Below, in pieces: positions 8,087 through 47,416 of a stretch of 64,000 nucleotides of DNA. Under the pieces are notes generated by a model that was not told where the DNA came from, did not search any database, and worked only from the letters and a program-made list of their open reading frames with translations. The DNA lies in contig JAHDEC010000010.1 of the NCBI GenBank assembly GCA_020629035.1, positions 1-64,000 on the forward strand, given 5' to 3'. Position 1 is the first letter of the stretch. Each line of letters starts with the position of its first letter. The position numbers and the translations under genes are program-made. The stretch is from Saprospiraceae bacterium (GTDB lineage Bacteria; Bacteroidota; Bacteroidia; Chitinophagales; Saprospiraceae).

Positions 8087-9931
8087 ATGAAGATTGAATC
8101 CAAATTGAGACTTACTCTACTCCTAGCTATTTGGTGTACAAGCATAGCTGGTGTACACGGACAAAAAGCCCTAATCATAGGTATTGATGGAATCCGCTCA
8201 GATGTTTTTGAATCTAGTCATACACCTGTGCTTGATGATTTAATTAGCGATGGGCTATATAGTCCGGATTGTCTCAACGATGATATAACCATTAGTGGGC
8301 CTGGTTGGTCAGCCATACTTTGTGGGGTGAGGTCTGAGAAACATGGTGTCACTGGCAATGACTTTTCTTCTAACAACTATGATGATTATCCGACCGTCAT
8401 TAAATACATCGAAGAAGCTAACCCTAACCTTAGCACCATTTCTATTTGTAATTGGAACCCAATTAATGATTTTATTGTCCAAAGCTATGCAGATACTAAA
8501 GAGAATGTTGGTTCAGATATAGATGTCGAGACTAGAGCTAGACACTATCTAGATGTCGAAGATCCAGACTTGCTCTTCTTACATTTTGACGAATGCGATG
8601 GTGCGGGTCATAGTACAGGATTTACGAGTGACTCTCCTGATTATGTCACTGCCATAGAAACCACTGATTCACTCATAGGCGAAGTCATTAATAGTTTACT
8701 GGCTCGACCAAACTACTCGGACGAAAACTGGGCAATTTTTATTACTTCTGATCATGGCGGGATAGGATTTAGTCATGGCGGCCAGACTATAGAAGAACGT
8801 AGGATTCCTTTTATCATTTCTGGAGATTCCATTGAAACTACGGTGATAGTAAAGGATAGTAGTCTTATATCTGTCAGCAATTGCTTGATGGATACAACTG
8901 AGTTGACATTTGATGGTGATAATGACTATGTAGAGTTCCCCCATATCCCAGATTATGATTTTGGACCAAATCAAGATTTTACAGTGGAGTGCAGAGTGAG
9001 AACATCTATGGCCGCGGATGTCGCTATAATGGGCAATAAAGATTGGGATAGTGGAAATAACAAAGGATTTGTATTCTCCTTTAAGTATCCAAGTGGACCT
9101 GAATGGAAAGTTAATATCGGCGACGGAAGTAACCGAGCTGATCTAAATATCGGTGCAAGTATTGCGGATAACGAATGGCACAGTCTTTCTGTCACCTTTG
9201 ATAGAGACGGTATGATGAAAATGTATCAAGAGGGTGTCTTTGTGGGCGAGACCTCTATTGCTTCTATCGGAGACATAGACAATAGCTCAGGTATATTCCT
9301 TGGCACAGATATCAACCAAGCATACGATTTTGGTGGATCTATTGCTGAAGTACGAATTTGGGATACAGTATTAGGAGCATCTTCAATCGCTGATTATGCT
9401 TGTAATGAAATAGATGCTCAGCATCCAAATTATAGCTCACTTATTGGATACTGGAAACTAGATGATGAGAATGCTACTGTGATTGAGGATTTTTCTACCA
9501 ATGATAATGATGGGACTATATCAGATGCAACATGGATGGCTACAGATTCTATATATGTGTATGATTACTCGGAGACTCCAAAACTTGTTGATCTTCCGGT
9601 CTCAGTACTCGGTCACCTCTGCATGGCTGCCGAGCCTTCTTGGGATATTGATGGACAAAGCTGGGTAGCCGATTGCACCTACGACTTATCGGCTTGCGTT
9701 AATCCAGGCTACATCACTTGGAATGGATCTATATCTGACAATTGGCATGATGCAAGCAATTGGGATAAAGGCAGAGTGCCCCTTGTTTGTGATAATGTTA
9801 TCATACCAGCAGATTTTTCTGTTAATATCCAAGCGGGTTCAACTGCAGTTTGCTACACCCTTGAAACAATAGGCAACGCCGAATTGTGTCAAGATGCCGG
9901 AGCAAACTTCGAAGTGCTCACTAATGACTAA
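8087..9931 (+). CDS. Alkaline-phosphatase-superfamily nucleotide pyrophosphatase/phosphodiesterase (ENPP-like) fused to a C-terminal LamG/concanavalin-like domain
   Basis: Signal peptide. IIGIDGIRSD, GPGWSAILCG, HFDECDGAGHSTGF and ITSDHGG are the metal-ligand motifs of type I phosphodiesterase/AP-superfamily enzymes. The C-terminal half (FTVECRVRTSMAADVAIMGNKDWDSGNNKGFVF...) is LamG-like. Confidence 0.65.
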   Translation: MKIESKLRLTLLLAIWCTSIAGVHGQKALIIGIDGIRSDVFESSHTPVLDDLISDGLYSPDCLNDDITISGPGWSAILCGVRSEKHGVTGNDFSSNNYDDYPTVIKYIEEANPNLSTISICNWNPINDFIVQSYADTKENVGSDIDVETRARHYLDVEDPDLLFLHFDECDGAGHSTGFTSDSPDYVTAIETTDSLIGEVINSLLARPNYSDENWAIFITSDHGGIGFSHGGQTIEERRIPFIISGDSIETTVIVKDSSLISVSNCLMDTTELTFDGDNDYVEFPHIPDYDFGPNQDFTVECRVRTSMAADVAIMGNKDWDSGNNKGFVFSFKYPSGPEWKVNIGDGSNRADLNIGASIADNEWHSLSVTFDRDGMMKMYQEGVFVGETSIASIGDIDNSSGIFLGTDINQAYDFGGSIAEVRIWDTVLGASSIADYACNEIDAQHPNYSSLIGYWKLDDENATVIEDFSTNDNDGTISDATWMATDSIYVYDYSETPKLVDLPVSVLGHLCMAAEPSWDIDGQSWVADCTYDLSACVNPGYITWNGSISDNWHDASNWDKGRVPLVCDNVIIPADFSVNIQAGSTAVCYTLETIGNAELCQDAGANFEVLTND

Positions 9932-9990
9932 AGCCAATTATGACCCTTGCTTCGCTAATGAAGATGATCAGCATTGGCCTAAATAACAAA

Positions 9991-10019
9991 AGCACAAGCT
10001 GCGCTTACAGTCTTGTGCT
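9991..10019 (-). terminator. Hairpin terminator downstream of the flotillin gene (minus strand)
   Basis: Perfect 8-bp inverted repeat AGCACAAG ... CTTGTGCT. On the minus strand it is followed by TTTGTTATTT. Confidence 0.45.
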
Positions 10020-10042
10020 TCTATCCTTTATAGACAACTAGC

Positions 10043-11578
10043 CTATTCTTCTGAGTCTTCTGCTTCTTCCACTGCTGGTTCTTCTTTTTTCTGGACCAAG
10101 GCTGCAGGCAAACTCATACCTGATTGCTCCAAGAAGTCATTTAATTGGGGCATCATTCCGTAAAGACCTTGGACAAAGTTCCCAACTCCCTGACCGCTTC
10201 CATTATCATAAACTACTACCTTATCTATATCTAGCTCCTTAATAGCAGATGTTTGGATTTGCGCCAATTCCGTTAATTTGTCGATCATCAAGTAGCCTAT
10301 GGCACTTTGCGGGTCTCCCCCAGCCGCTTCTACTAATTTCTGAAAACCTTCTGCCTGCTTAGTTAACAAAGCTTCTTGTCCTTTTGCTTGCGCCATATAC
10401 TTAGCAAGTAAAGCATCTGCTTCCCCCTTAGCTGTTTCTCTCTGTCTTTCTGCTTCTGCCTGTGCAGCTATCACCGCTTTTTGCTTCTCGATATCAGCAT
10501 CTACCACTTCGTCTGCTTGCTTTTTTGCCAGCTCCATTTTTGCTCTAGCATCTTCAGATTCTTTCTCTGCAATATATGCTTCTTCTAGTGCTTTGGCTGC
10601 AGCCACTTTTCTCGCAGCTGTTGCTCTTCTCTCGGCTTCAGCGACTTCTATATCTCTGGTGGCATTCGAGGCTGCAATTTTAATACTGGCTGTATTTTTA
10701 CCTTCTGTTGCGATGGCGCGTGCATCCGCCTCTCCGATTTCTGCTTTAGAATTTGCTTCGGCTGTTCGCACTCTTTGTTTTTGTGTTGCTTCTGCTTCTC
10801 CGATATCGGCTAAACTGTTTGCATTTGCGATTTGAATTCTTTGCACCTGATTAGCTTCTGCTTCTCCAATTTCTGCTCGACTATTTGCATCAGCCACCTT
10901 AATTCGTTGCTCTTGCTGGGCTTCAGCTTGACCTATCGCCCCAGTTCGCTCTTCGTTCGATACTTTTACTTTTGCATCGTTGATTGCTTTAGCAGCCGCC
11001 TCCTTACCTAAAGCTTGGATATAGCCGGATTCATCTTGAATATCAGTCACGTTTACGTTGATCAGCTCTAGTCCGATTTTATGCAGCTCGTTTCCTACAT
11101 TCTGATAAACAGAATCTACAAATTTATCTCGATCAGTATTTAATTCTTCGATATCCATATTGGCAATCACCAATCTCATTTGACCCATTATTATATCGTG
11201 AGCCAAAGAACGAATGGCAGGCTGCTCCAAGCCCAAAAGTCGCTCAGCTGCAGCAATCATCAGATGTGGCTTGTTACTTACACCCACAGTGAACTGCGCA
11301 GGCACTGAAACTCGAATATTCTGCTTTGACAAGGCATCCTGAAGGTTTACATCGATGCTTATTGGAGTTAGATCGAGGTACCGATAATCTTGAATAACAG
11401 GCCATACAAAAGTAGCACCACCGGCATAACATTTGGCTGATTGTTCACCTCCAGTCTTCCCATAGACAACCAGGATTTTATCGGATGGACATCGCTTATA
11501 GCGACTGATGAAAAATAATAGTAATAAGATAGCGAGAAACAGCACAAAGCCCACTACCAATAGCAATTGAGTACCCAT
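10043..11578 (-). CDS. Flotillin / SPFH (band 7) domain protein, YqiK-like
   Basis: N-terminal TM anchor, SPFH-like core, then long A/E-rich heptad repeats (AEANSKAEIGEAEA...) typical of bacterial flotillins. Confidence 0.8.
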   Translation of the reverse strand: MGTQLLLVVGFVLFLAILLLLFFISRYKRCPSDKILVVYGKTGGEQSAKCYAGGATFVWPVIQDYRYLDLTPISIDVNLQDALSKQNIRVSVPAQFTVGVSNKPHLMIAAAERLLGLEQPAIRSLAHDIIMGQMRLVIANMDIEELNTDRDKFVDSVYQNVGNELHKIGLELINVNVTDIQDESGYIQALGKEAAAKAINDAKVKVSNEERTGAIGQAEAQQEQRIKVADANSRAEIGEAEANQVQRIQIANANSLADIGEAEATQKQRVRTAEANSKAEIGEADARAIATEGKNTASIKIAASNATRDIEVAEAERRATAARKVAAAKALEEAYIAEKESEDARAKMELAKKQADEVVDADIEKQKAVIAAQAEAERQRETAKGEADALLAKYMAQAKGQEALLTKQAEGFQKLVEAAGGDPQSAIGYLMIDKLTELAQIQTSAIKELDIDKVVVYDNGSGQGVGNFVQGLYGMMPQLNDFLEQSGMSLPAALVQKKEEPAVEEAEDSEE

Positions 11579-11602
11579 AATAATTTATATTTAGTTAAAA
11601 GA

Positions 11603-12130
11603 TCAGTTACTTTCTAATTCAACAAAAACAAATTCACCTTCGACTTCCACTACAACTATTCTTGCTCCTGTTTTTATTTCAATGTTGTCCCTAGTTTTTG
11701 CTTTAAACTCTCTGGTTGCTCCCTTTACACTTACGTTTACGAGCCCACTTCCACCTTTAGGGATTTTTAGATACACATCGCCACTTTGATACAAAGCATC
11801 TTCCATTGACCAGTTTACATTTTCTTCGTTGCGCAATAACAACTTCAACAAATAGCTGAGCAACATAAAAGCTAACACACCAGCCACGATACCTATCAGG
11901 ACAGCTAACCAGGTACTTTGTTCGTTTACCAATAGTACTTTTATAACCCAACTTGCCACTGATAAAAAGGTCAATATTCCTTTAATAACTCCGAGCCCTC
12001 CTCCGGTTTCAGTATCCACATCAGCACCCACATCTACATCCAAATCGAGACCTCCAAGGATAGACAAAAACAAGAGCAATACTAAGATTCCACCTGCGAA
12101 AAGAGAGATATATGTAAGTGTAGTCACCAT
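11603..12130 (-). CDS. NfeD-family membrane protein (YqiJ/YuaF-like partner of flotillin)
   Basis: Multi-TM N-terminus plus a C-terminal OB-fold-like segment (GATREFKAKTRDNIEIKTGARIVVVEVEGEFVFVE). It lies directly upstream of flotillin in the same orientation, the canonical pairing. Confidence 0.65.
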   Translation of the reverse strand: MVTTLTYISLFAGGILVLLLFLSILGGLDLDVDVGADVDTETGGGLGVIKGILTFLSVASWVIKVLLVNEQSTWLAVLIGIVAGVLAFMLLSYLLKLLLRNEENVNWSMEDALYQSGDVYLKIPKGGSGLVNVSVKGATREFKAKTRDNIEIKTGARIVVVEVEGEFVFVELESN

Positions 12131-12880
12131 AGGTTGATTGGATTAAATGTTGAACCTTTCTAAAGTATTAAGAATTTCTTAACATCTATAATACTAACGA
12201 AATACTTTTGAAATAAAGTTCCGTTAATCCATATCTATACATTGCCACTGAATCAAATTATTATTCATTTCCGAGTTATTTTTTCATACTGAATGCTAAG
12301 TGTGACATTACTAAAATGCAATCAAACAATATTGATTTACACATTAAAAATAATACATATTTATATTTAAAATATTTATATATTACTCATTAATAAATTT
12401 TTACACATTTAAAATATATTGAATATTATATATTCTTAATATATAAATAGAATCAACACTAAATAATAAAATAAGTGGGTTTACGAACAATTCTTCCGCT
12501 TGCTTTTTCCAATGTTATGGATTTAGAAACTGCGTTTAAATCTTTTAAAGCTTCGTTTGCTAAAGCTGAACCCTGTAAAATTTTTACGACTAAAGCAGGC
12601 TACAACACTGATAACTAAGCGGTGCTGTCCATGTTAGAAACTCAAGGCTTAGCTTTTTAAATAGCAAAAAAATTCTACTCACTTTGCAATTAGTCAATCT
12701 TAAAAAATACTATCTTTAAATTATGCAAAGTCTTTATACTTACAACTGAGCTAAAAGCATTTTAGCTTAAAAAATAATAAGTATAAATAAACTCATATAA
12801 AGTATAAAAATTAGCAGGCTTTGTATGCAAACGTTATATCCTCATAGACCTTTTAATTAAGTTTAATTCAAATTAAGTTA

Positions 12881-14671
12881 ATGCACATGAAAGCAACTAC
12901 TTTCAATTTAATTATCTCGTGTATCTTCTTTTCCTTTCAAGGAATATCGCAAGGTGTTATTTCATTTGGCGCAGGAAACGATACAGATATTATAGTCACA
13001 GCCAGCAGTTCACAAGGTAACTCTACACCTGACAAAATAGTCAATGGTGATGGTCTTGATGCAGAAAAAATGGCCGCAGCAAGGTTTTTAACCCAAGCGG
13101 GATTTGGAATGAAGATGCAAGATGTAGAGCAAGTCATTAACATTGGCTATGAATCTTGGATCAATCAAGAATTTGCTAAACCTCTGAGTCTCTATGATGA
13201 TCAAGTGGAAGAAATATGGTCTACCGTTTACCAGATGAGACTCGATGCAGGTATAGAGCCTGATATGATTTTTGGTCCTCTATCAGAACATTTTAACTAT
13301 GGATGGTGGCAGAATGTGATTACCTCAGATGACCAACTACGACATCGTATGGCCTTTAGTTTAAGCCAAATTTTGGTTGTTTCAGGTAAATCAGATCTTG
13401 ACAACTACGCTAGAGCGATGTCATCTTATTACGATGTGTTGTATAAAAATGCCTTTGGGAATTACTATGATTTACTTCTCGAAGCTACCCTTCATCCAGC
13501 TATGGGTTACTATTTATCGCACTTAAATAATGAAAAATCAAACCCAGAAAGTTTGATGAGAGCCGATGAAAACTATGCACGTGAAATCATGCAACTCTTT
13601 ACGATTGGATTGCATCAGTTAAATCAGGATGGAACCGTAAAAATGACAAGTGATGGGTTTCCACTACCCACCTATAACATAGAAGATATTAGAGAGTTAG
13701 CTAAGGTATTTACTGGATTAGGGCCAGGAGCCGTAGACCCCTTCTATCCGCATGTTGATCTTCACTTTGGCTTGGGCTTTTGGGGTGTAGAAAAGCACAC
13801 ACCGATGGCAATGTACAACGAGCACCACGACCAGAGCACTAAACACTTAATCGAAGGCAAAACACTTCCTGCAGGTCAGGATGGTATGAAAGATGTGGAG
13901 GATGCTGTTATGCATTTATTTAACCATCCAAATGTAGGACCCTTTGTGGCAAGACAACTAATTCAACGACTAGTCAAATCGAATCCTACACCTGGCTATA
14001 TTTCCAGAGTAGCTTCTGCATTTAACAATAACGGCGAGGGCGTTCGAGGTGATCTAAAAGCGGTAATTAAAGCCATCTTATTAGATTCAGAAGCACGATC
14101 ATGCGAAGCACTGGAAGATCCAAATAATGGCAAACTTAGAGAACCTATCACTAGATATGCACAACTGGCTAAAACCTTTGAACTAGTAAGTCCATTCGGT
14201 AGATACTGGGACCCGAGTGCTGGTCATCTAGAATGGACAGGACAAATGGCCTTAAATGCACCTTCTGTTTTCAACTTTTATGAGCCAGATTTTCAGCCGG
14301 CTGGTGAATTAACTCAAGCTTACTTGGTGGCTCCAGAATTTAAAATTCACAATACCAAAACAGCCATTGGATATATTAATATGATTAATGCAGCAACTAT
14401 CTGGGACACCTTTATTCGTTCTTGGGAGCTAGACTATGGCGATGAGGTGGTGCGTATGAATACTAGCGACTATGAAGCCAAAGCTGATGACATCGAGCGA
14501 GTTTTAAATGATCTTGACATACTGCTCTCTTACGGACAAATAGAGGATTGGTACCGAGACGAAATTCGAACCGCATGCAATGAGCAGTTATGGGGAGACT
14601 TAAATAAAAACAAAGTGAGAATGGCGATTTACGCCATAATGATTTCACCTTATTACACGATTCAAAAGTAA
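12881..14671 (+). CDS. DUF1800 family protein
   Basis: About 600 aa with a signal peptide. DUF1800-like core (HFNYGWWQNVITSDDQLRHRMAFSLSQILVVS). It is followed by its characteristic DUF1501 partner. Confidence 0.65.
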   Translation: MHMKATTFNLIISCIFFSFQGISQGVISFGAGNDTDIIVTASSSQGNSTPDKIVNGDGLDAEKMAAARFLTQAGFGMKMQDVEQVINIGYESWINQEFAKPLSLYDDQVEEIWSTVYQMRLDAGIEPDMIFGPLSEHFNYGWWQNVITSDDQLRHRMAFSLSQILVVSGKSDLDNYARAMSSYYDVLYKNAFGNYYDLLLEATLHPAMGYYLSHLNNEKSNPESLMRADENYAREIMQLFTIGLHQLNQDGTVKMTSDGFPLPTYNIEDIRELAKVFTGLGPGAVDPFYPHVDLHFGLGFWGVEKHTPMAMYNEHHDQSTKHLIEGKTLPAGQDGMKDVEDAVMHLFNHPNVGPFVARQLIQRLVKSNPTPGYISRVASAFNNNGEGVRGDLKAVIKAILLDSEARSCEALEDPNNGKLREPITRYAQLAKTFELVSPFGRYWDPSAGHLEWTGQMALNAPSVFNFYEPDFQPAGELTQAYLVAPEFKIHNTKTAIGYINMINAATIWDTFIRSWELDYGDEVVRMNTSDYEAKADDIERVLNDLDILLSYGQIEDWYRDEIRTACNEQLWGDLNKNKVRMAIYAIMISPYYTIQK

Positions 14672-38491: not shown

Positions 38492-39269
38492 GCATTTAGA
38501 GCAACGATCTACCGAAGAACTAACGCGCATCATTAATGATGAGGATAAAACGGTCGCATTTGCCGTAGAAAAATCCATCCATCAAATCAATAAAAGCATA
38601 GACGCTATTTTTAATCAAATGAAAAAAGGTGGCCGTTTGTTTTACATTGGTGCAGGAACTTCTGGGCGATTAGGCATACTAGATGCCTCTGAATGCCCTC
38701 CTACTTTTGGCGTGGATGATGATTGGGTTATCGGTTTAATTTCGGGTGGAGATAAAGCCATTCGGAAGGCTCAAGAATTTGCCGAAGATGATACTAATCA
38801 GGCCTGGATTGATTTACAAGCATATGCCATTTCTCCGAATGATATTGTCTTGGGACTCGCCGCTTCCGGCACAACGCCCTATGTTGTTTCGGGACTGCAA
38901 ACAGCTAGAGAAAACCAGGTTCCTACCGTCTGTATCACTTGTAATACAAACACGCCTATTGCAGCACAGGCAGATTACCCTATCGAGGTTATTGTCGGTC
39001 CAGAAGTAGTAACCGGCAGCACTCGAATGAAATCAGGAACAGCACAAAAATTGGTCTTGAATATGATATCGACCACGGTTATGATCAAGCTAGGCAGAGT
39101 GGTAGATAATCGGATGGTGGATATGAAACTTAGCAATGATAAACTGGTGGATAGAGGTACTAAGATGGTCATGGAACAAACAAAATTAGATTACAAAACT
39201 GCTCAAAAATTTCTACTGAAAGAAGGCAGTGTGCGAAAAGCCATAGCTTTTTTTAACACTAGATTGTAA
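38454..39269 (+). CDS. murQ: N-acetylmuramic acid 6-phosphate etherase
   Basis: SIS-domain motifs RIINDEDKTVAFAVEKS, GRLFYIGAGTSGRLG, ECPPTFGV. Confidence 0.85.
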   Translation: MINKITEQASNHRHLEQRSTEELTRIINDEDKTVAFAVEKSIHQINKSIDAIFNQMKKGGRLFYIGAGTSGRLGILDASECPPTFGVDDDWVIGLISGGDKAIRKAQEFAEDDTNQAWIDLQAYAISPNDIVLGLAASGTTPYVVSGLQTARENQVPTVCITCNTNTPIAAQADYPIEVIVGPEVVTGSTRMKSGTAQKLVLNMISTTVMIKLGRVVDNRMVDMKLSNDKLVDRGTKMVMEQTKLDYKTAQKFLLKEGSVRKAIAFFNTRL

Positions 39270-39368: not shown

Positions 39369-40547
39369 CTAGGCACTGGCATTTTCGAGTTGTATGAATT
39401 TAATTTTCATTAGTCTTTGCTTACTTATTGATTTAGCACATACTCCTCTGCAAATGGAAGATAAAATCTCAATGTTACTTTTTAATTGAAGAGAGTCAAG
39501 TACTTGTTGTTGGTACTCTTTGTTTATCTCAATTTTATATACGCAGTCGGAAATAAGGATTTTTCCTTTTCTTATGTACCCGATTTTTCTGTAACAATTC
39601 CTTCCAACCCTTCCTAAAAGAATGTTCCCTTTGTTTGCATATGCTTCTTGTCTTATTTCAGCTTTTCTACGATCTCCATTTATATTAGTTAGACCATAAT
39701 CTAAGCTGGTTGTATGAACAAATTTAGATTTTAGTGATTTGAGCTCTTTATGAGAAAAAGATCCTCTTCTAATTTCCGCCCCTAAGTCATTTAGAGAAAC
39801 TAGTTTTTTATTTTGATTATTTTGAAAATGCCAATATTTGAAATCGAATGTCTCATGAAGTAAATTACTTTGTATTTTCAAGTTTTTGACTTTTGCTTTT
39901 GGGTCAAACTTACAAAGTGTTACCATGTAGTTTTTTACTGGTTCTATTTTCTTGATTATTAGTATAGTTGTTTTTGCTTCAGTTGTTTTGAACGACCTTT
40001 CAGGTATGTCAATTATTTTAATTAGTTTATAATTTTTCAGAATGGCTTCTCTGAAGCCCTTGTAGGTATGTGAAGCAGAAATGGAATCTGAAACTATTAT
40101 TCCAAGTATACCATTTTTTTTGATCGAGCTTAAACCATATGCAGCAAATAATATTTCTGTATTAAAATTGTTCAGGTTTAGGTAATTAAGAATTTTTATT
40201 TCACTCAGGAGCTTTTTATAATTAGAATCAAATTTTAATTTTATATAAGGAGGATTGCTTATAGCGGCATCTAATTTTGTTATTTGTAGTGATTGAAATA
40301 TATTTTCTTTCCTAAGATCAATTTGATAAAGTTTGGAGTCGTTAATTAAAATGTTCTTTAGCTTATTTTGAAGATTTATGTCAATTCCTATGACATTTGA
40401 TGTCTTATAGACATTTTGAAATTGTTTACTTAAAGCTCCATCTCCAATTCCTAAATCTAGCACATAGGTAGGTTCGATAAGCGGTAGTGCCTGAATTAAT
40501 ATTTTGCTTATACTATCAGATGTATAATGTGCTCCATTGTTTATCAT
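39369..40547 (-). CDS. Gamma-class amino-methyltransferase (M.TaqI/HemK-like; probably N6-adenine DNA MTase) with C-terminal target-recognition-like region
   Basis: Motif I VLDLGIGDGAL lies before motif IV NPPY (about nt 40245-40256). The C-terminal roughly 200 aa are basic. It is the last gene of the AT-rich 4-gene cassette and its start overlaps the upstream gene's stop. Confidence 0.6.
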   Translation of the reverse strand: MINNGAHYTSDSISKILIQALPLIEPTYVLDLGIGDGALSKQFQNVYKTSNVIGIDINLQNKLKNILINDSKLYQIDLRKENIFQSLQITKLDAAISNPPYIKLKFDSNYKKLLSEIKILNYLNLNNFNTEILFAAYGLSSIKKNGILGIIVSDSISASHTYKGFREAILKNYKLIKIIDIPERSFKTTEAKTTILIIKKIEPVKNYMVTLCKFDPKAKVKNLKIQSNLLHETFDFKYWHFQNNQNKKLVSLNDLGAEIRRGSFSHKELKSLKSKFVHTTSLDYGLTNINGDRRKAEIRQEAYANKGNILLGRVGRNCYRKIGYIRKGKILISDCVYKIEINKEYQQQVLDSLQLKSNIEILSSICRGVCAKSISKQRLMKIKFIQLENASA

Positions 40548-41500
40548 TATATAAGATTAGTTAAGTGATAAATGTATGTTTTGCCAGACCCTTGGCTGCC
40601 AAATTTCTTTTCCAAAGGGAAATCATAAACAATATAAGTATTATTCAAAGCCGCATATAGTGCCATTCCTAATAAATGAGGTCTGGGTCCAATTGGACAT
40701 AAGTAAATGTCATATTGAGATTTCCAATTTAATTCTAATTCTTTTAAAGTATTTATTATGTCAAATGGAGAAGTCGCTAAGCAATTTTTTGCATTGTCGA
40801 ATACATCATACCTGAGTAATGTATCCGAGTTCAATTTAAGAGCAATTTGATCCCAACCTGGTTTGTAAGAGGGAAAACCAAAAATTGGGTAAATTTCTTT
40901 AGGGTTGGTAGATTCATTTATGGCAACAAATCTTTTCTTGTCAAAACCAAGTGATACGATTAGTAATTTGTCTTTTTTCGATGCTTTTTTTATAAACCCA
41001 GGCACTGGTGACGAACTACCTTTAAACATTTCAATTAAGTCGAAAGGTTCTTCAGAATCTTTTAAGTTTGGTAGATTTTTTCTTTCATACTTCTTAGGCT
41101 GTGTATAGCTAACAAAAAAAAGTTTGGTTTTAATTTCCTTTACGAACACACTAATTGAATAGAAAATCAAAGCTTGTCTCATAGAAGTGATGTCTAAGAG
41201 AACTGATTTAGTTGTTAAGTTTAGTGAATTTAAAAGTTTGAAGTATTGCGGAATTATAGGTATGGAATTTAAACTTTTATCAATGATCTCTCCGTTTTGT
41301 TTTAATGTATATGAAAAAGACTGGTAATTGTCTTTTGACGATAGGAGTAAGATTAATCCTTTATAACCCTTTAGTTTTGTTAAAAGTGCTGACGATCTAT
41401 GATCTTCTTCTTGCAATGAATCAGTTATCACAATATCAACATTTGAGCTGAATATTGCACGATTATGATCAGATAGTATATAGGATTCTTGATACATCAT
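40547..41500 (-). CDS. Hypothetical protein of the island; possible PD-(D/E)xK-type nuclease
   Basis: No clear family. VLLDITSM...(20 aa)...VFVKEIKTK gives a hhhD...hh(E)xK arrangement. Translationally coupled on both sides (ATGA overlap). Confidence 0.3.
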   Translation of the reverse strand: MMYQESYILSDHNRAIFSSNVDIVITDSLQEEDHRSSALLTKLKGYKGLILLLSSKDNYQSFSYTLKQNGEIIDKSLNSIPIIPQYFKLLNSLNLTTKSVLLDITSMRQALIFYSISVFVKEIKTKLFFVSYTQPKKYERKNLPNLKDSEEPFDLIEMFKGSSSPVPGFIKKASKKDKLLIVSLGFDKKRFVAINESTNPKEIYPIFGFPSYKPGWDQIALKLNSDTLLRYDVFDNAKNCLATSPFDIINTLKELELNWKSQYDIYLCPIGPRPHLLGMALYAALNNTYIVYDFPLEKKFGSQGSGKTYIYHLTNLI

Positions 41501-43422
41501 TGATGGTCTGAGAATAGATTTGGAGTTTCTGAGATTGATCGAAAAAGATACTTAGTGACTATGGATTCAATTTGTTTTTCAGACCCAATAAGTAAGCCTT
41601 CTATATCTTGGGCACTTATTTTAAGTTTTCTTTTTCTTCTATGGGATATACCAAAATAAGGGCAATAAATATGATTGATGTGAAAATCAAAAAATTCTAT
41701 CCCATCTTTGGTTTTGCTTGACTCTCCTTGTTCAAGAATTTTGTTTTTTAAGGCTTCTTGGAAAAGAATAAAGGCTTCTTCCTTATTTTGTTTTAAAGTA
41801 TTGTATTCAGTTGTGAAATGGTTTTGTTCTACTTCTCCTAATGTCGATGATGGAGAGATATGGTGAGATCTAAAAATTTTACCTAATGCTAAGGTGAAAT
41901 ACTTTAATCTGAATCCATGAGGTTCATATGATTCAATTTCATCTATTTTGTTCTTGCTTACTTTATGGGCTGCATCGGACTGTTCAATTTGGGTTAGTTG
42001 CCTAGGTTTTTTAAAGTCTAATCTGTCACTAGAATAGAACAGGGCATTATTGAATGATTCTTCAACTAATTCTAAAAAACTTCTTATTACACCTGATGAC
42101 AAGGCAGAGAAAGTTTGAATTCCAGAATATAGTTTCGCGGCATTTATCTCATGGCCTAAAAGAAACTCAGTGTGGTATAAAGTATTGCCAATTAAATCTT
42201 TATAGCGTTGATTTTGATTTTCAATCATTTCCTTAAGTTCTAAGGCAGGAATTATATTTGATTTTGTTCGCAACAAAAGACATATTGAATTTCTAATTAT
42301 TAATGGATCTAATGAGGAGAAAAAACCCTTTAACGATTCCAAGGTAGTTTTATCATAATTAAGTTTTCGAGATTGAATTTCAAGAACTTGATATAATTGT
42401 TTTTTTAAGTTATTAAACTGATCTATCGACAAAACTTTGAATTCTTCACCTCTTGGATATTTTTTAAGGTACCATTTCAAAGATGTATGGTCTTCGGATT
42501 TTGATAGGATGTTTTGCTCTTCTAGATAAATACTAAGCCGTTTGTCACAAATCTTTACTGCTAAATTTATAAATTCTTGAATGTTGGAGTATTCTGCAGT
42601 GTCAGTTGTCAAAGAGACATAATCGTCTTTTTTGCGAATTTCTTCTTGAGAAGCAACCTTATAGGATTTGATGCCATTTGTAATTACTGCGTAATCAAAT
42701 ACAAGGTTATGATTACTTTGCTTAAGTAGAGTATTTAAAGTTATCTGTTGATACTTAAGAAGCTTTTCAAATTCATCTATATATATATGAAAAGTTAAAT
42801 GAGAAAAGTATTCGATTTTTTTTAATTCTTCTACTAGATCAGTTATTATTATTCCAGGACCTGTACCGTTAGGAGAATCATTTAATGTAGAATTTGAGAA
42901 TGTTTCTAAATCAATTAACTTCTTCTGTAATACATTTTTTAGTTCCGCAAGAGAGTTGATATTGTGAGTTGAAAAACGGTAAGCTAACTTTTTGTTAAAA
43001 GGTTCAATGTTTTCAATTGTCATTAAACCTTCTTTTATTGCCTCTTGAATAAAGTCAATAATTTCAAGAGTTATCACACAATTAAAATATAGATTAAATA
43101 AGCCTGACCAAACTTTCTCAGAAGTCTCTTTCCCTGTAAAGCTTGATATAAATCTTGAATCAACTAGGTAGTAAAATCCGATATGTTTCTCACTGCCAAT
43201 TAAGTTTTTTATAGTTGGCTCAGATTGATAGGAATATTTTTTTTCTTGCCACGAGTTGCACTTGTAAAACATGGTTTTACCAGTACCTCTACTGCCTTCA
43301 AAAATTAATGGCTTTTCGGATATCTTTGCTCTAAATGGTTCGTCGACAAAATATTTCCACACATTGTCTCCCATCTGTTCAGTTCGCAACTTTGAAAACG
43401 GGTTATATGGTTTTAAATTCAT
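41497..43422 (-). CDS. Large P-loop NTPase (Walker A/B; AAA/ORC- or STAND-like) of the island
   Basis: Walker A IFEGSRGTGKTMF (about nt 43271-43312). Walker B HIYIDEFEKL. Long alpha-helical C-terminal region. The likely start is the internal ATG at 43422, directly after the upstream stop; the ORF track extends to 43491. Confidence 0.6.
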   Translation of the reverse strand: MNLKPYNPFSKLRTEQMGDNVWKYFVDEPFRAKISEKPLIFEGSRGTGKTMFYKCNSWQEKKYSYQSEPTIKNLIGSEKHIGFYYLVDSRFISSFTGKETSEKVWSGLFNLYFNCVITLEIIDFIQEAIKEGLMTIENIEPFNKKLAYRFSTHNINSLAELKNVLQKKLIDLETFSNSTLNDSPNGTGPGIIITDLVEELKKIEYFSHLTFHIYIDEFEKLLKYQQITLNTLLKQSNHNLVFDYAVITNGIKSYKVASQEEIRKKDDYVSLTTDTAEYSNIQEFINLAVKICDKRLSIYLEEQNILSKSEDHTSLKWYLKKYPRGEEFKVLSIDQFNNLKKQLYQVLEIQSRKLNYDKTTLESLKGFFSSLDPLIIRNSICLLLRTKSNIIPALELKEMIENQNQRYKDLIGNTLYHTEFLLGHEINAAKLYSGIQTFSALSSGVIRSFLELVEESFNNALFYSSDRLDFKKPRQLTQIEQSDAAHKVSKNKIDEIESYEPHGFRLKYFTLALGKIFRSHHISPSSTLGEVEQNHFTTEYNTLKQNKEEAFILFQEALKNKILEQGESSKTKDGIEFFDFHINHIYCPYFGISHRRKRKLKISAQDIEGLLIGSEKQIESIVTKYLFRSISETPNLFSDHQ

Positions 43423-44348
43423 TGGGTCGTTTTTCTTCTTATTAAATGCTTCCAATCCGGAGACTTTTTGTGAAATATTGGTAACGACCAATTTGGAATT
43501 CTATCGCTAAATATCACAGCAAAGTCAAGTTTTTTAAAACCTCTGAAACTTACTCCTCGTGTTTTTTGTATTTCATTAAAATAACTTACAGCTTTCTCCC
43601 TTTCATTAGAATCTTTTCTCCAAATTGCGGTGTTTTCTTCATGAAATATTCTGTTTTCGTTAGTAAGCTCTTCTACAACAACCACATTTATGTTTTCCAG
43701 AGATCCTGCTTGCTTTAATTTTTTGACACTATCAATGTATCCAATTAATGCAAGATAAGTTATGCTGAAATCATTGCTTTTTGCATATTCTTTTATGAAT
43801 TCTATGTTCTGTGATTTCCAAAAATTCTTAAGTTGCATTCCAGATCCAATGCAATCGTCAACAATTATTAATTGCTCATAGTTTTGAATTATATCTTGAT
43901 TGATATTATGTAAAAAATAAACATTTTCTTTTGGTACTGATAGTTTATGAACTAAATCACCTGTCACCAAATTTCCACTTTCATATGGCTTGTCAGAATC
44001 TAATAAGGGGATAAAACAAGTTTTGTTCTTTAATTCGGTAATAGTCCCATTGTAATAGTTTCGAGGAAGTATGTGATCTTTAAAACTATTTAGAAAACTT
44101 TTAATTTGACTTGACCAGACTAGTTCATATATGCCATATTCTAGAAGTTTGATCAAATCCTTTTTTGAATAGAAAATTGTGTTTAGCAATATTTTAAGGA
44201 GATAGTATTTGCCTTCATCATCATTATCGAAATTGAAATTTATCCACTCTTCAATTTCCTTGAATGAAAGGAAATCACATTTTGACCTAACAAGAGCTTT
44301 AAGCACTGGTAGTTTAGCTCTATAGTATTGTGAATGATTTATTTCCAT
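43419..44348 (-). CDS. Phosphoribosyltransferase (PRTase)-domain protein, first gene of the island cassette
   Basis: Central PRPP-binding-type motif LIIVDDCIGSGMQL (about nt 43830-43871). Four hydrophobic residues, an acidic pair and a small-residue loop, as in type I PRTases. An N-terminal roughly 150 aa region of unknown function. Confidence 0.5.
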   Translation of the reverse strand: MEINHSQYYRAKLPVLKALVRSKCDFLSFKEIEEWINFNFDNDDEGKYYLLKILLNTIFYSKKDLIKLLEYGIYELVWSSQIKSFLNSFKDHILPRNYYNGTITELKNKTCFIPLLDSDKPYESGNLVTGDLVHKLSVPKENVYFLHNINQDIIQNYEQLIIVDDCIGSGMQLKNFWKSQNIEFIKEYAKSNDFSITYLALIGYIDSVKKLKQAGSLENINVVVVEELTNENRIFHEENTAIWRKDSNEREKAVSYFNEIQKTRGVSFRGFKKLDFAVIFSDRIPNWSLPIFHKKSPDWKHLIRRKTTQ

Positions 44349-44570: not shown

Positions 44571-45167
44571 TTAACCTCTATTCTTCTCAAGCAGAATCAT
44601 CATCATTAAGCCTAATAAGATGCGATCATCATCATCCGAATCCATAGGGCCTTCTTTCGTAATTTCAAAATTTCTACCAAAAAAAGAAGGCAGTTTTCGC
44701 AATCTAACAATTTCCTTATCTTTTGTATTTTTTACGATATATGATGGATTAAATAAATAGCCGGTAAGCATGCTTATAATCGGGATTTGCCCCAAAATAG
44801 AGTCTCCAACTTTTGCCCAAGCATTTTCCTCGCTTACTGTGTATTGTATATTCTGATTTTCGTCTAGAATAGTATACTGGGCTTTCCAAATTGACTTCCA
44901 ACCTTTTCTTGCAATTTTCCCAAATTCTTTACCATCCTTATCAAAGAATGCATAAGCCGCAGAAAAATCCAACCACTTATCGGCTTTGATCCGATATAAT
45001 TGTTCGGTTTTTGATTGATCACTGAAAATGAGAATGTCTTCCTTAAGCTTAAATAGTTTTTGTTTTACGTAAGCAATAATCTTTCCTTTAGAGTCGGTTG
45101 CTGTAAAGTCATTCGATATAGAGGAAATTTTAAATTGAAGGGAGATAGGAAAAGTAATGTTCTGCAT
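44571..45167 (-). CDS. LURP-one-related (LOR)/Tubby C-terminal-like family protein (DUF567)
   Basis: About 198 aa. YVKQKLFKLKEDILIFSDQ...YRIK.. pattern typical of bacterial LOR/scramblase-like proteins. Confidence 0.5.
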   Translation of the reverse strand: MQNITFPISLQFKISSISNDFTATDSKGKIIAYVKQKLFKLKEDILIFSDQSKTEQLYRIKADKWLDFSAAYAFFDKDGKEFGKIARKGWKSIWKAQYTILDENQNIQYTVSEENAWAKVGDSILGQIPIISMLTGYLFNPSYIVKNTKDKEIVRLRKLPSFFGRNFEITKEGPMDSDDDDRILLGLMMMILLEKNRG

Positions 45168-46831: not shown

Positions 46832-47416
46832 ATGTTTTTAGAACCCAGTTTTAGAGGCCAACGCAGCGGTTGGATCGAAGTCATTTGTGGCTCTATGTTT
46901 TCGGGTAAAACTGAGGAACTAATCAGAAGACTTAAAAGGGCTAAGATAGCTAATCAAAAAGTAGCAATCTTTAAACCGGCTAAAGATGTTAGATATGACG
47001 AGCAAGCCGTCGTTTCGCACGACGATAATGCCATCCAGTCGCTTACCCTTGAAAAAAGTAAAGAAATCTTAGCACATATTCATGATGTAAATGTAGTAGG
47101 TATCGATGAAGCCCAATTTTTCGATGAGCACCTAACTGCTGTTTGCCAGCAACTAGCGATTAGAGGAATTCGAGTAATTATTGCCGGACTGGATATGGAT
47201 TTTCGAGGAAATCCTTTCGGTCCAATACCGCAACTCCTAGCAGTAGCTGAGTATATTACTAAAGTTCATGCAATTTGTCCACATTGTGGAAGTCTAGCTA
47301 CCCATTCCTACAGACTGAGTGAAGAAAACGAAACAGTTTTGCTTGGTGAAAAGGATAAATATGAGCCAAGATGTCGCGTTTGTTATAGTATGGGGAACAT
47401 ATTAAATTTATCCTAA
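46832..47416 (+). CDS. tdk: Thymidine kinase
   Basis: P-loop [18 protein letters not shown]-terminal zinc ribbon CPHCG...CRVCY. Confidence 0.9.

Follow-up and report, generated by a model that had tools for sequence, protein, structure and literature searches.

An ORC/Cdc6-like AAA+ ATPase in a phosphoribosyltransferase, CARF6 and methyltransferase cassette of a Saprospiraceae bacterium: a divergent member of a candidate defense family

What kind of ATPase lies at the center of a compact, low-GC group of genes in a Saprospiraceae bacterium, and what could this group of genes do for its host? We approached the question in a stretch of 64,000 nucleotides (assembly GCA_020629035.1, contig JAHDEC010000010.1, positions 1 to 64,000 of the forward strand; hereafter, the window), where a first-pass annotation made from the sequence alone had proposed a Walker A/B NTPase of 641 aa that would fit ORC/AAA-like or STAND-like defense NTPases. 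Family membership, fold, motif conservation, operon structure, synteny, mobility and domain fusions were computed here. The proposal is supported: the gene (g2) matches the Pfam family PF24389, and the nearest folds of its product are those of archaeal AAA+ proteins, Cdc6/ORC, MuB and TnsC. By sequence, g2 is a divergent addition to a family already defined by computation, and it is the second gene of an operon that also encodes a phosphoribosyltransferase-like protein (PRTase; g1), a CARF6-family protein (g3) and a DNA methyltransferase (g4). The cassette most likely acts against phages or plasmids. We lean, at somewhat better than even confidence, toward a restriction-modification-like, BREX-like defense system in which g2 would be an ATP-driven DNA-binding switch and the PRTase its output.

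Family membership and start of the central ATPase

The gene and the elements of its product are listed below, in window coordinates.

41497..43422, minus strand: g2, ORC/Cdc6-like AAA+ ATPase of 641 aa; the true start is the ATG at 43422
43273..43296, minus strand: Walker A motif or P-loop, GSRGTGKT(M), residues 43-51 (G43-S-R45-G-T-G-K49-T50), with R45 inside the P-loop
42766..42789, minus strand: Walker B motif, HIYIDEFEKL, residues 212-221 (H212-IYID216-E217-F-E219), on strand 210-216 of the model
42820..43158, minus strand: helical insertion of ~110 residues (89-201) between core strands 2 and 3; five helices, each modeled at a predicted local distance difference test score (pLDDT) >90
41929..42495, minus strand: all-helical middle region, residues 310-498, bearing the near-invariant Y432, G434, R447 and Q481 (from the model and from conservation)
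41617..41916, minus strand: predicted C-terminal winged-helix-like domain, residues 503-602, with a basic tail (SHRRKRK); presumed to bind DNA

PF24389 ("ORC-CDC6-like") was the sole Pfam family matched by g2 (E 2.2e-78; 264.9 bits against a cut-off of 27), with residues 7-602 aligned to positions 1-571 of the 571-position model. The Cdc6/ORC families of Pfam were unmatched. So were all PADLOC (at E<=1) and NCBIfam models, including those for BrxC, Avs and the ABC/OLD-type proteins GajA of Gabija and PtuA of Septu, in agreement with the first-pass annotation, which had recognized no signature of these families. A match to a housekeeping ATPase family, set beforehand as the result that would count against the assignment, was likewise not found. 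Both Walker motifs lie where the annotation had placed them and, together with the family match, they are far beyond chance. Its description of the class as unclear was overcautious, as the family has a catalogue entry and homologues go by "ORC-CDC6 family AAA ATPase" at NCBI (some of the close homologues carry this name in NCBI or UniRef).

A profile search of 1.84 billion proteins retrieved 1632 cluster representatives (clustered at 50%) at E<=1e-3, 406 of them at E<=1e-30, and the matches were almost all 620-680 residues long. A repeat homologue search with a 108-sequence profile returned nearly the same set as the earlier one. The close homologues share 37-73% identity with g2, are 618-660 aa long except for two partial records, and all carry PF24389, which was also matched by each of the 57 diverse members scanned. 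The window protein is itself divergent, with at most 73% identity to anything else on record, and all of the window proteins looked up are singletons at 90% identity. No relatives were found among IMG/VR viral contigs.

Conservation was scored over 108 family members with 20-44% identity to window g2. Invariant in this set are G43, R45, G48 and K49 of the P-loop (GxRGxGKT) and D216 and E219 of the Walker B motif (DExE), with E217 present in 99%. The near-invariant positions are E217, Q225, N230, K234, T256, E261, D267, Y432, G434, R447, Q481, G503, G514, E532, F536 and S593; R595 is also conserved family-wide and falls, beside G514, E532, F536 and S593, in the C-terminal domain. The arginine inside the P-loop is retained in the TIR and kinase fusions described below and is a hallmark of the family. 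Such an arginine is typical of the archaeal Walker-type ATPase group. A hidden metal site or HNH-like nuclease, prompted by residues H581, H584, C587 and H594 of the close homologues, was considered and rejected because these residues are conserved in the close homologues alone and not across the family.

The open reading frame (ORF) of g2 spans 41497..43491 on the minus strand (664 aa from a TTG), and an in-frame ATG at 43422-43420 yields the 641-aa protein. The ORF is real and intact, and ATG 43422 is its start. The first-pass annotation had preferred this codon to the one at 43491, a choice upheld by the ATGA overlap with g1, by the N-termini of 24 homologues, which align to M1 within a few residues, by the PF24389 match, which begins at residue 7, and by the exact 641-aa protein on record in NCBI and Logan (P0001). 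The same annotation had placed the ATG directly after the upstream stop codon; in fact start and stop overlap by 4 nt (ATGA, 43422-43419).

Predicted fold of the ATPase

Sequence searches of the PDB with g2 profiles (A1, A2) gave P-loop-level noise and nothing significant. A first AlphaFold model, built from 25 sequences, had a pLDDT of 77, was poor in the ATPase core and produced weak structural matches. The second model (m38257fd9ff69; AlphaFold2), built from 57 sequences, divergent fusions among them, had a pLDDT of 87.3 and a predicted template modeling score of 0.83. Its core strands span residues 39-42, 80-86, 210-216, 240-246 and 269-272, and the ~110-residue insertion between the second and third takes a position that presumably matches that of the insert specific to initiators among ORC/Cdc6-type AAA+ proteins. 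A long helix (278-302) comes next and the chain is then all-helical to residue ~498. About 400 aa of helical C-terminal domain had been predicted from the sequence; the helical region stands, at about 278-498, but helices are not all that the C-terminal ~350 residues contain. The model has a winged-helix-like unit with a helix-strand-helix-helix-strand-strand order at ~503-582, the elements of which (helix 503-521, strand 535-539, helices 540-546 and 548-559, strands 563-570 and 576-582) are all predicted with high confidence.

Structure comparison of this model scored highest with PABY2304 (2qen; 11.7), Drosophila Cdc6 (11.1) and SSO1545 (2fna; 10.9), followed by MuB (10.3), TnsC (9g0f; 10.1), ORC5 (10.1), yeast Cdc6 (10.1), archaeal Cdc6/Orc1 proteins (9.2-9.4) and RdrA (8.9). 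Scores were lower for BrxC (8.2-8.5) and for NLRs, MalT, CED-4 and Avs5 (7.6-8.7); DnaA and Hda are also among the fold neighbors. At the sequence level, weak secondary Pfam matches were scattered among the 57 members scanned: AAA_14 in 35, AAA_22 in 27, NACHT in 16, AAA_16 in 15 and ATPase_2 (PF01637) in 5. Thus, the weak matches and the fold neighbors of the model place g2 in the AAA+ class, in the neighborhood of ORC/Cdc6 and the archaeal ATPases.

The likeness to each of these groups comes with differences. With PABY2304, SSO1545 and RdrA of RADAR (8fnt), the g2 family shares the ATPase_2 matches of 5 of its 57 members, but the identity is ~10%, no sequence match is significant and the gene partners are others; g2 also differs by its helical insert of ~110 residues and by a helical C-terminal part that is much larger. 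The insert after strand 2 and the C-terminal winged helix of the model resemble ORC/Cdc6, as would a presumed ATP-dependent assembly on DNA, which is also the case for MuB and TnsC. However, g2 is not a sequence-level member of ORC/Cdc6 (weak AAA_22 and AAA_16 matches occur in part of the family), its operon context is defense-like rather than replicative, and the conserved box VII arginine was not found in the 108 members. The modularity of effector and NTPase (as in the TIR fusion P0053) and the weak NACHT or nSTAND matches in 13-16 of the 57 members recall STAND and Avs proteins. Yet g2 has no C-terminal repeat sensor (TPR, LRR or WD40), its predicted fold is nearer to ORC/Cdc6 and the archaeal ATPases, and its family is partnered by separate CARF6 and methyltransferase genes.

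The cassette, its variants and its neighbors

The other features of the operon are the following.

43419..44348, minus strand: g1, PRTase-CE (phosphoribosyltransferase-like) protein of 309 aa (Pfam PF24390, E 2.6e-41)
43830-43868, minus strand: phosphoribosyl pyrophosphate (PRPP)-loop motif of g1, IIVDDCIGSGMQL, read in the sequence
40547..41500, minus strand: g3, CARF6-family protein of 317 aa (PADLOC)
39369..40547, minus strand: g4, gamma-type N6-adenine DNA methyltransferase of 392 aa (Pfam N6_Mtase, Eco57I)
40437-40457, minus strand: motif I of g4, DLGIGDG, read in the sequence
40245-40256, minus strand: NPPY motif of g4, with N98, P99 and P100 invariant
43419..43422, minus strand: stop/start overlap of g1 and g2, ATGA, read in the sequence
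41497-41500, minus strand: overlap of g2 and g3, ATGA, read in the sequence
40545-40549, minus strand: overlap of g3 and g4, TAATG, read in the sequence

The three overlaps indicate that g1 to g4 are translationally coupled on the minus strand. The operon lies on a low-GC insert of ~5 kb, with a GC content of 0.29-0.31 over 40-45 kb against about 0.36-0.40 on either side. Its first gene, g1, matched the PADLOC models for retron type III-A PRTases (E 1e-17), and among 34 homologues D164, D165, G168 and G170 of the PRPP loop are invariant, with S169 at 91%. Thirteen PADLOC models matched g3 at E<=1, twelve of them CARF6--CARF_CARF_CARF or _TM and one CARF_STK_AAA (best E 3.5e-34); no Pfam family did. 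A homologue search with g3 returned 5 proteins, and its invariant residues are Y132, P135, Y138, G185, R190, G271 and D293. The motifs D103-I-T-S and G271-(T/P)-R-P lie where we take two CARF signature motifs to be. PDB sequence searches with g1 and g3 returned nothing. The methyltransferase g4 aligned over its full length with the PADLOC model MTase_II PDLC03285 (E 1.2e-49). Genes g2, g1 and g3 share with PF24389, PF24390 and the CARF6 models of PADLOC and the Koonin laboratory full-length above-threshold matches, length class, motifs and neighborhood. No substantial difference sets them apart; g2 departs from PF24389 in its divergence and in a Val at the position of T256. The association of PRTase-CE, ORC/Cdc6 and CARF proteins was reportedly described computationally by Burroughs et al. 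in 2015, and the CARF6 clade is said to have been described by Makarova et al. in 2020.

The surroundings of the window cassette carry few marks of mobility. No tRNA gene and no Rfam match were found in the whole window, no promoter or terminator signal at the cassette exceeded those of shuffled sequences, and a search for terminal repeats gave one weak 33-nt pair alone. This imperfect direct repeat of 33-36 nt (39206-39238 and 44667-44702; ~85% identity, a 3-nt indel, 5.46 kb spacing) brackets the cassette, but it is probably a chance pair and not an att site, because the copies lie within ORFs (the 3' end of murQ and a LOR-like gene). The LOR-like gene (44571-45167, minus strand; 198 aa) lies 222 nt upstream of g1 in the low-GC stretch and has weak Tubby_C_like and LOR (LURP-one-related) matches; it does not adjoin the cassette at other loci, and on its far side is a 228-aa hydrophobic, multi-pass-looking ORF. 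Elsewhere in the window, composition outliers were noted at 10-11 kb (GC 0.449, AT skew -0.379) and 12-13 kb (GC 0.282).

To place the operon among its relatives, one genome per species was scanned and partners were sought by profile search of the ORFs. The census yielded 35 loci, 34 of which have a g2 homologue. Same-strand partners of these 34 were the PRTase in all, CARF6 in 32 and the methyltransferase in 29; both loci without CARF6, and four of the five without a methyltransferase, are at contig edges. The order PRTase, ATPase, CARF6, methyltransferase is found in Bacteroidota, Bacillota (Oscillospiraceae, Ruminococcus, Lachnospiraceae, Syntrophomonas), Spirochaetia, Leptospirales and one deltaproteobacterium, and the methyltransferase comes first in Marinobacter, Aeromonas, Campylobacterales and Sulfurovum. 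The window has this cassette layout, with PRTase-CE upstream, CARF6 downstream and the methyltransferase motifs intact.

Natural variants point to the parts of the cassette that are held constant. The 1217-aa protein P0210 (within L040:158-6032) joins a kinase, PF24389 (E 1.6e-27) and CARF6 in one polypeptide and matches the PADLOC model PDLC01925 "CARF6--CARF_STK_AAA" end to end; this architecture has been described, with an Arg in the P-loop (PMC4012209). In P0053 (758 aa; within L039:3189-7564), a TIR domain is N-terminal to a full-length PF24389 ATPase, and genes for CARF6 and an N6_N4-type methyltransferase come next. A second TIR-ATPase contig (L042:2702-7072; 59% identity) has the same three genes, and the PRTase gene is absent from both. 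At another locus (L041), a 890-residue ATPase and CARF6 stand alone, with no generator enzyme detected. The place of the methyltransferase in a Spirochaetia metagenome-assembled genome (L011:6663-11095) is held by DUF4007 and a 1178-residue AAA_16 ATPase, components that have been discussed as BREX/Dnd-related (bioRxiv 10.1101/2025.10.09.681413). The partner methyltransferases come from three families (gamma-type N6_Mtase, N6_N4_Mtase and C5 DNA_methylase) and, therefore, methylation as such would matter rather than one enzyme. From the kinase, TIR, minimal-pair and methyltransferase-swap variants, the ATPase and CARF6 appear to be the fixed core of the cassette, and their fusion suggests that they act together. 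The enzyme encoded upstream of the ATPase, or fused to its N-terminus, appears to be exchangeable (PRTase, TIR or kinase).

Further genes accompany some of these variants. P0210 has an overlapping 388-aa gene with no Pfam match in front of it and, behind it, a C5 DNA methyltransferase, HNH, Vsr and an EcoO109I-type restriction-modification system. A Thoeris-like set of TIR and LD_cluster2 genes adjoins the TIR-ATPase genes of L039. Elsewhere, a two-gene insert separates CARF6 from the methyltransferase (L006:10914-13627) and looks like a nested second system; it encodes a 578-aa P-loop protein (GPRGTGKT, a zinc ribbon and a sub-threshold match to the PF24389 P-loop) and a 326-aa protein with an RxxxxH (HEPN-like) motif.

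The CARF6 partner and the TIR variants also bear on the main alternative to our preferred mechanism, in which the PRTase (or TIR) would make a nucleotide-like second messenger on infection and the Rossmann domain of CARF6 would bind it, gating the ATPase as a DNA clamp or blocker on the invading replicon. The best PADLOC match of g3 puts it in the CARF superfamily, the members of which are ligand sensors (PMC4012209). CARF6 is fused to the ATPase in P0210, TIR stands in the PRTase's stead in L039 and L042, and the 317-aa CARF6 protein is too small to include a separate effector domain. In Thoeris, signals are made by TIR domains. We nevertheless consider signaling of this type unlikely. Apart from AAA+ and the winged helix, no catalytic effector domain is recognizable in the ATPase, the minimal pair of L041 comes with no detected generator, no CARF6 ligand is known, and the PRTases of retron III, ShosTA and PsyrTA have been described as effectors or toxins (bioRxiv 10.1101/2025.09.30.679545).

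The cassette is horizontally mobile. Its flanks are different at every locus, and a tblastn search of PLSDB found the ATPase on 157 plasmids, 130 of them from Klebsiella and 138 conjugative; four E. coli transconjugant plasmids are among the carriers. On one of the plasmids (OW967834.1, locus L037; IncR/MOBF), a full cassette of methyltransferase, PRTase, ATPase and CARF6 occupies positions 9245-14296, ~3 kb from aac(3)-IIe, and its three non-methyltransferase genes are annotated "hypothetical protein" in PGAP/RefSeq. The Marinobacter nauticus cassette is probably transposon cargo: a Tn7-like TnsD/TniQ gene (L031:11283-12713) is directly beside it, followed by three genes of TnsC/B/A-like sizes. 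At another locus, a Mu-type transposase comes after the cassette (L008:12547-14124). Flanking genes of the defense type at other loci include Schlafen/AlbA_2, an AAA-ATPase_like protein with a PD-(D/E)XK domain and AAA_14/DUF4143, with Thoeris-like TIR genes and a type II restriction-modification system as further defense context. On one contig (L038; CAKLQF020000018.1), labeled "Acinetobacter phage MD-2021a", the cassette is surrounded by efp, cstA, tdcB, kamA and tRNA-Val. This contig resembles a bacterial chromosome more than a phage and, thus, the two "phage" matches are no sign of phage carriage.

The many plasmid-borne copies, together with fold neighbors such as Cdc6, ORC, DnaA and Hda, would also suit a replication or partition initiator of a mobile element, with g2 binding an origin on the island or plasmid and its neighbors as unrelated cargo. 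We regard this role as exceedingly improbable. Translational coupling ties the four genes together, their synteny extends across phyla, and fusions to TIR or a kinase are what is typically seen in conflict systems. The carrier plasmids have replicons of their own, such as IncR, and the window cassette has no tRNA gene, origin-like repeats or integrase-sized ORF before the housekeeping flanks are reached. Operon coupling, domain fusions and the missing origin-like feature together make an initiator unlikely.

Thymidylate or dUTP genes adjoin the cassette in several unrelated lineages. At six loci (L002, L003, L005, L010, L030 and L035), thyA ends 1-4 nt inside the PRTase gene or 2 nt short of it; all six are from Chitinophagaceae or Sphingobacteriaceae, and their outer flanks all differ. 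A thyX gene comes after the methyltransferase in Syntrophomonas (L012:12077-12760), upstream in a Ruminococcus operon (L018:4824-5447) and beside the ATPase-CARF6 pair (L041:2773-3501). In Acinetobacter, a dUTPase_2 gene (L038:4365-5003) overlaps the PRTase gene, and in the window tdk (46832-47416) lies 2.5 kb from the cassette. The linkage may reflect either a hotspot of insertion or a connection in function.

The recurrence of thyA, thyX, dUTPase_2 and tdk near the cassette in unrelated lineages would suit a pathway in which the PRTase-like enzyme, the ATPase and the CARF-like protein together install or read a base modification beyond methylation, possibly of thymidine or uracil, with the methyltransferase as an accessory. 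Such a pathway might be likened to ATPase-assisted base-exchange systems. It seems to us quite improbable, since most loci have no thymidylate or dUTP neighbor, the TIR and kinase swaps are hard to square with base exchange, and Pfam, PADLOC and NCBIfam scans found no glycosylase or transglycosylase signatures. In addition, the linked thyA looks canonical when compared by eye with E. coli ThyA, and a hotspot effect may account for its position.

A methylation-gated model and its meaning

We return to the restriction-modification-like, BREX-like reading of the cassette. In this model, the methyltransferase would mark the host DNA, and the ATPase, in complex with CARF6, would bind DNA via its winged helix. 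In its ATP state, the ATPase would assemble on unmarked DNA, as Cdc6/ORC, MuB and TnsC do on DNA. The assembly would then turn on the PRTase as the catalytic output, so that nucleotide pools are poisoned or depleted or a nucleotide-like product is made. Complex formation, the sensing of DNA and of its methylation, the effector role of the PRTase and the defense phenotype are what we infer from the sequences and the predicted fold. The PRTase may well be the output enzyme, as TIR takes its place in two independent contigs and the retron III-A effector models match g1. By analogy, PRTases serve as effectors or toxins in retron III, ShosTA, PsyrTA and Ophion, and the ShosT PRTase disturbs purine metabolism (bioRxiv 10.1101/2025.09.30.679545). 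The PRTase system of DefensePredictor is a different one, a pair of PRTase and NADAR.

The comparison with BREX (BrxC/PglY, PglX, PglZ) rests on a shared composition: both have a DNA methyltransferase and a large ORC/Cdc6-type ATPase next to an enzyme that does not look like a nuclease, and both lack a classical restriction endonuclease (bioRxiv 10.1101/2025.10.09.681413). Consistent with this, g4 gave weak PglX matches in PADLOC and NCBIfam. By contrast, g2, at half the size of BrxC, has no PADLOC match to BrxC/PglY at E<=1; PglZ, BrxA, BrxB and BrxL are absent from the cassette, and its PRTase and CARF6 partners are unknown in BREX.

Several points weigh against a defense system of this design. 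No nuclease or other classical restriction effector was found in g1 to g4, and the window cassette is surrounded by housekeeping genes (murQ, tdk, purH) rather than by a recognizable defense island. Because TIR domains may generate signals as well as act as effectors, the TIR swap does not decide between these roles for the PRTase. PADLOC has no model for the ATPase, which puts the system outside the validated and candidate systems of that 2023 release, and no experimental study of any cassette member was found in the literature searched. Within g2, no arginine conserved in at least 70% of the 108 members lies between strands 4 and 5 as a box VII arginine finger, and the sensor-1 and sensor-2 residues are not assignable. 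The conserved polar residues between these strands are T256, E261 and D267. Candidate arginines for a finger or sensor are R45 in the P-loop, R295 (84%) and R447 (95%), the last of which is the sole candidate for a sensor-2-like arginine. Finally, residue 256 (window 42655-42657, in the loop that joins core strands 4 and 5) is Val in window g2 and in its closest homologue, P0002, as opposed to Thr in 93% of the family; it is the sole position of at least 90% conservation at which window g2 deviates.

The variants and the thymidylate neighbors also allow a broader proposal, which we advance tentatively and think possible rather than probable. The cassette would be a widespread immune system with a fixed sensor core (ATPase and CARF6), self marking by any of three methyltransferase families and an exchangeable catalytic arm, the PRTase version of which acts on the pyrimidine/thymidylate branch. 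Action of the PRTase on this branch would account for the recurring association with thyA, thyX and dUTPase genes.

For the window, the result is an ordinary one, as it adds one more intact, rather divergent copy on a 5-kb low-GC insert. The family to which it belongs is large, reaching from Bacteroidota, Bacillota and Spirochaetota to several proteobacterial groups and 130 Klebsiella plasmids, the majority of which are conjugative, and three of the four genes are still annotated as "hypothetical". If the defense reading is true, the cassette would be a methylation-gated system that has no nuclease, with a bearing on phage therapy and on the spread of plasmids in Klebsiella. If the broader proposal is also true, it would mean restriction-modification-like killing by nucleotide chemistry instead of DNA cutting, carried on clinical Klebsiella resistance plasmids.

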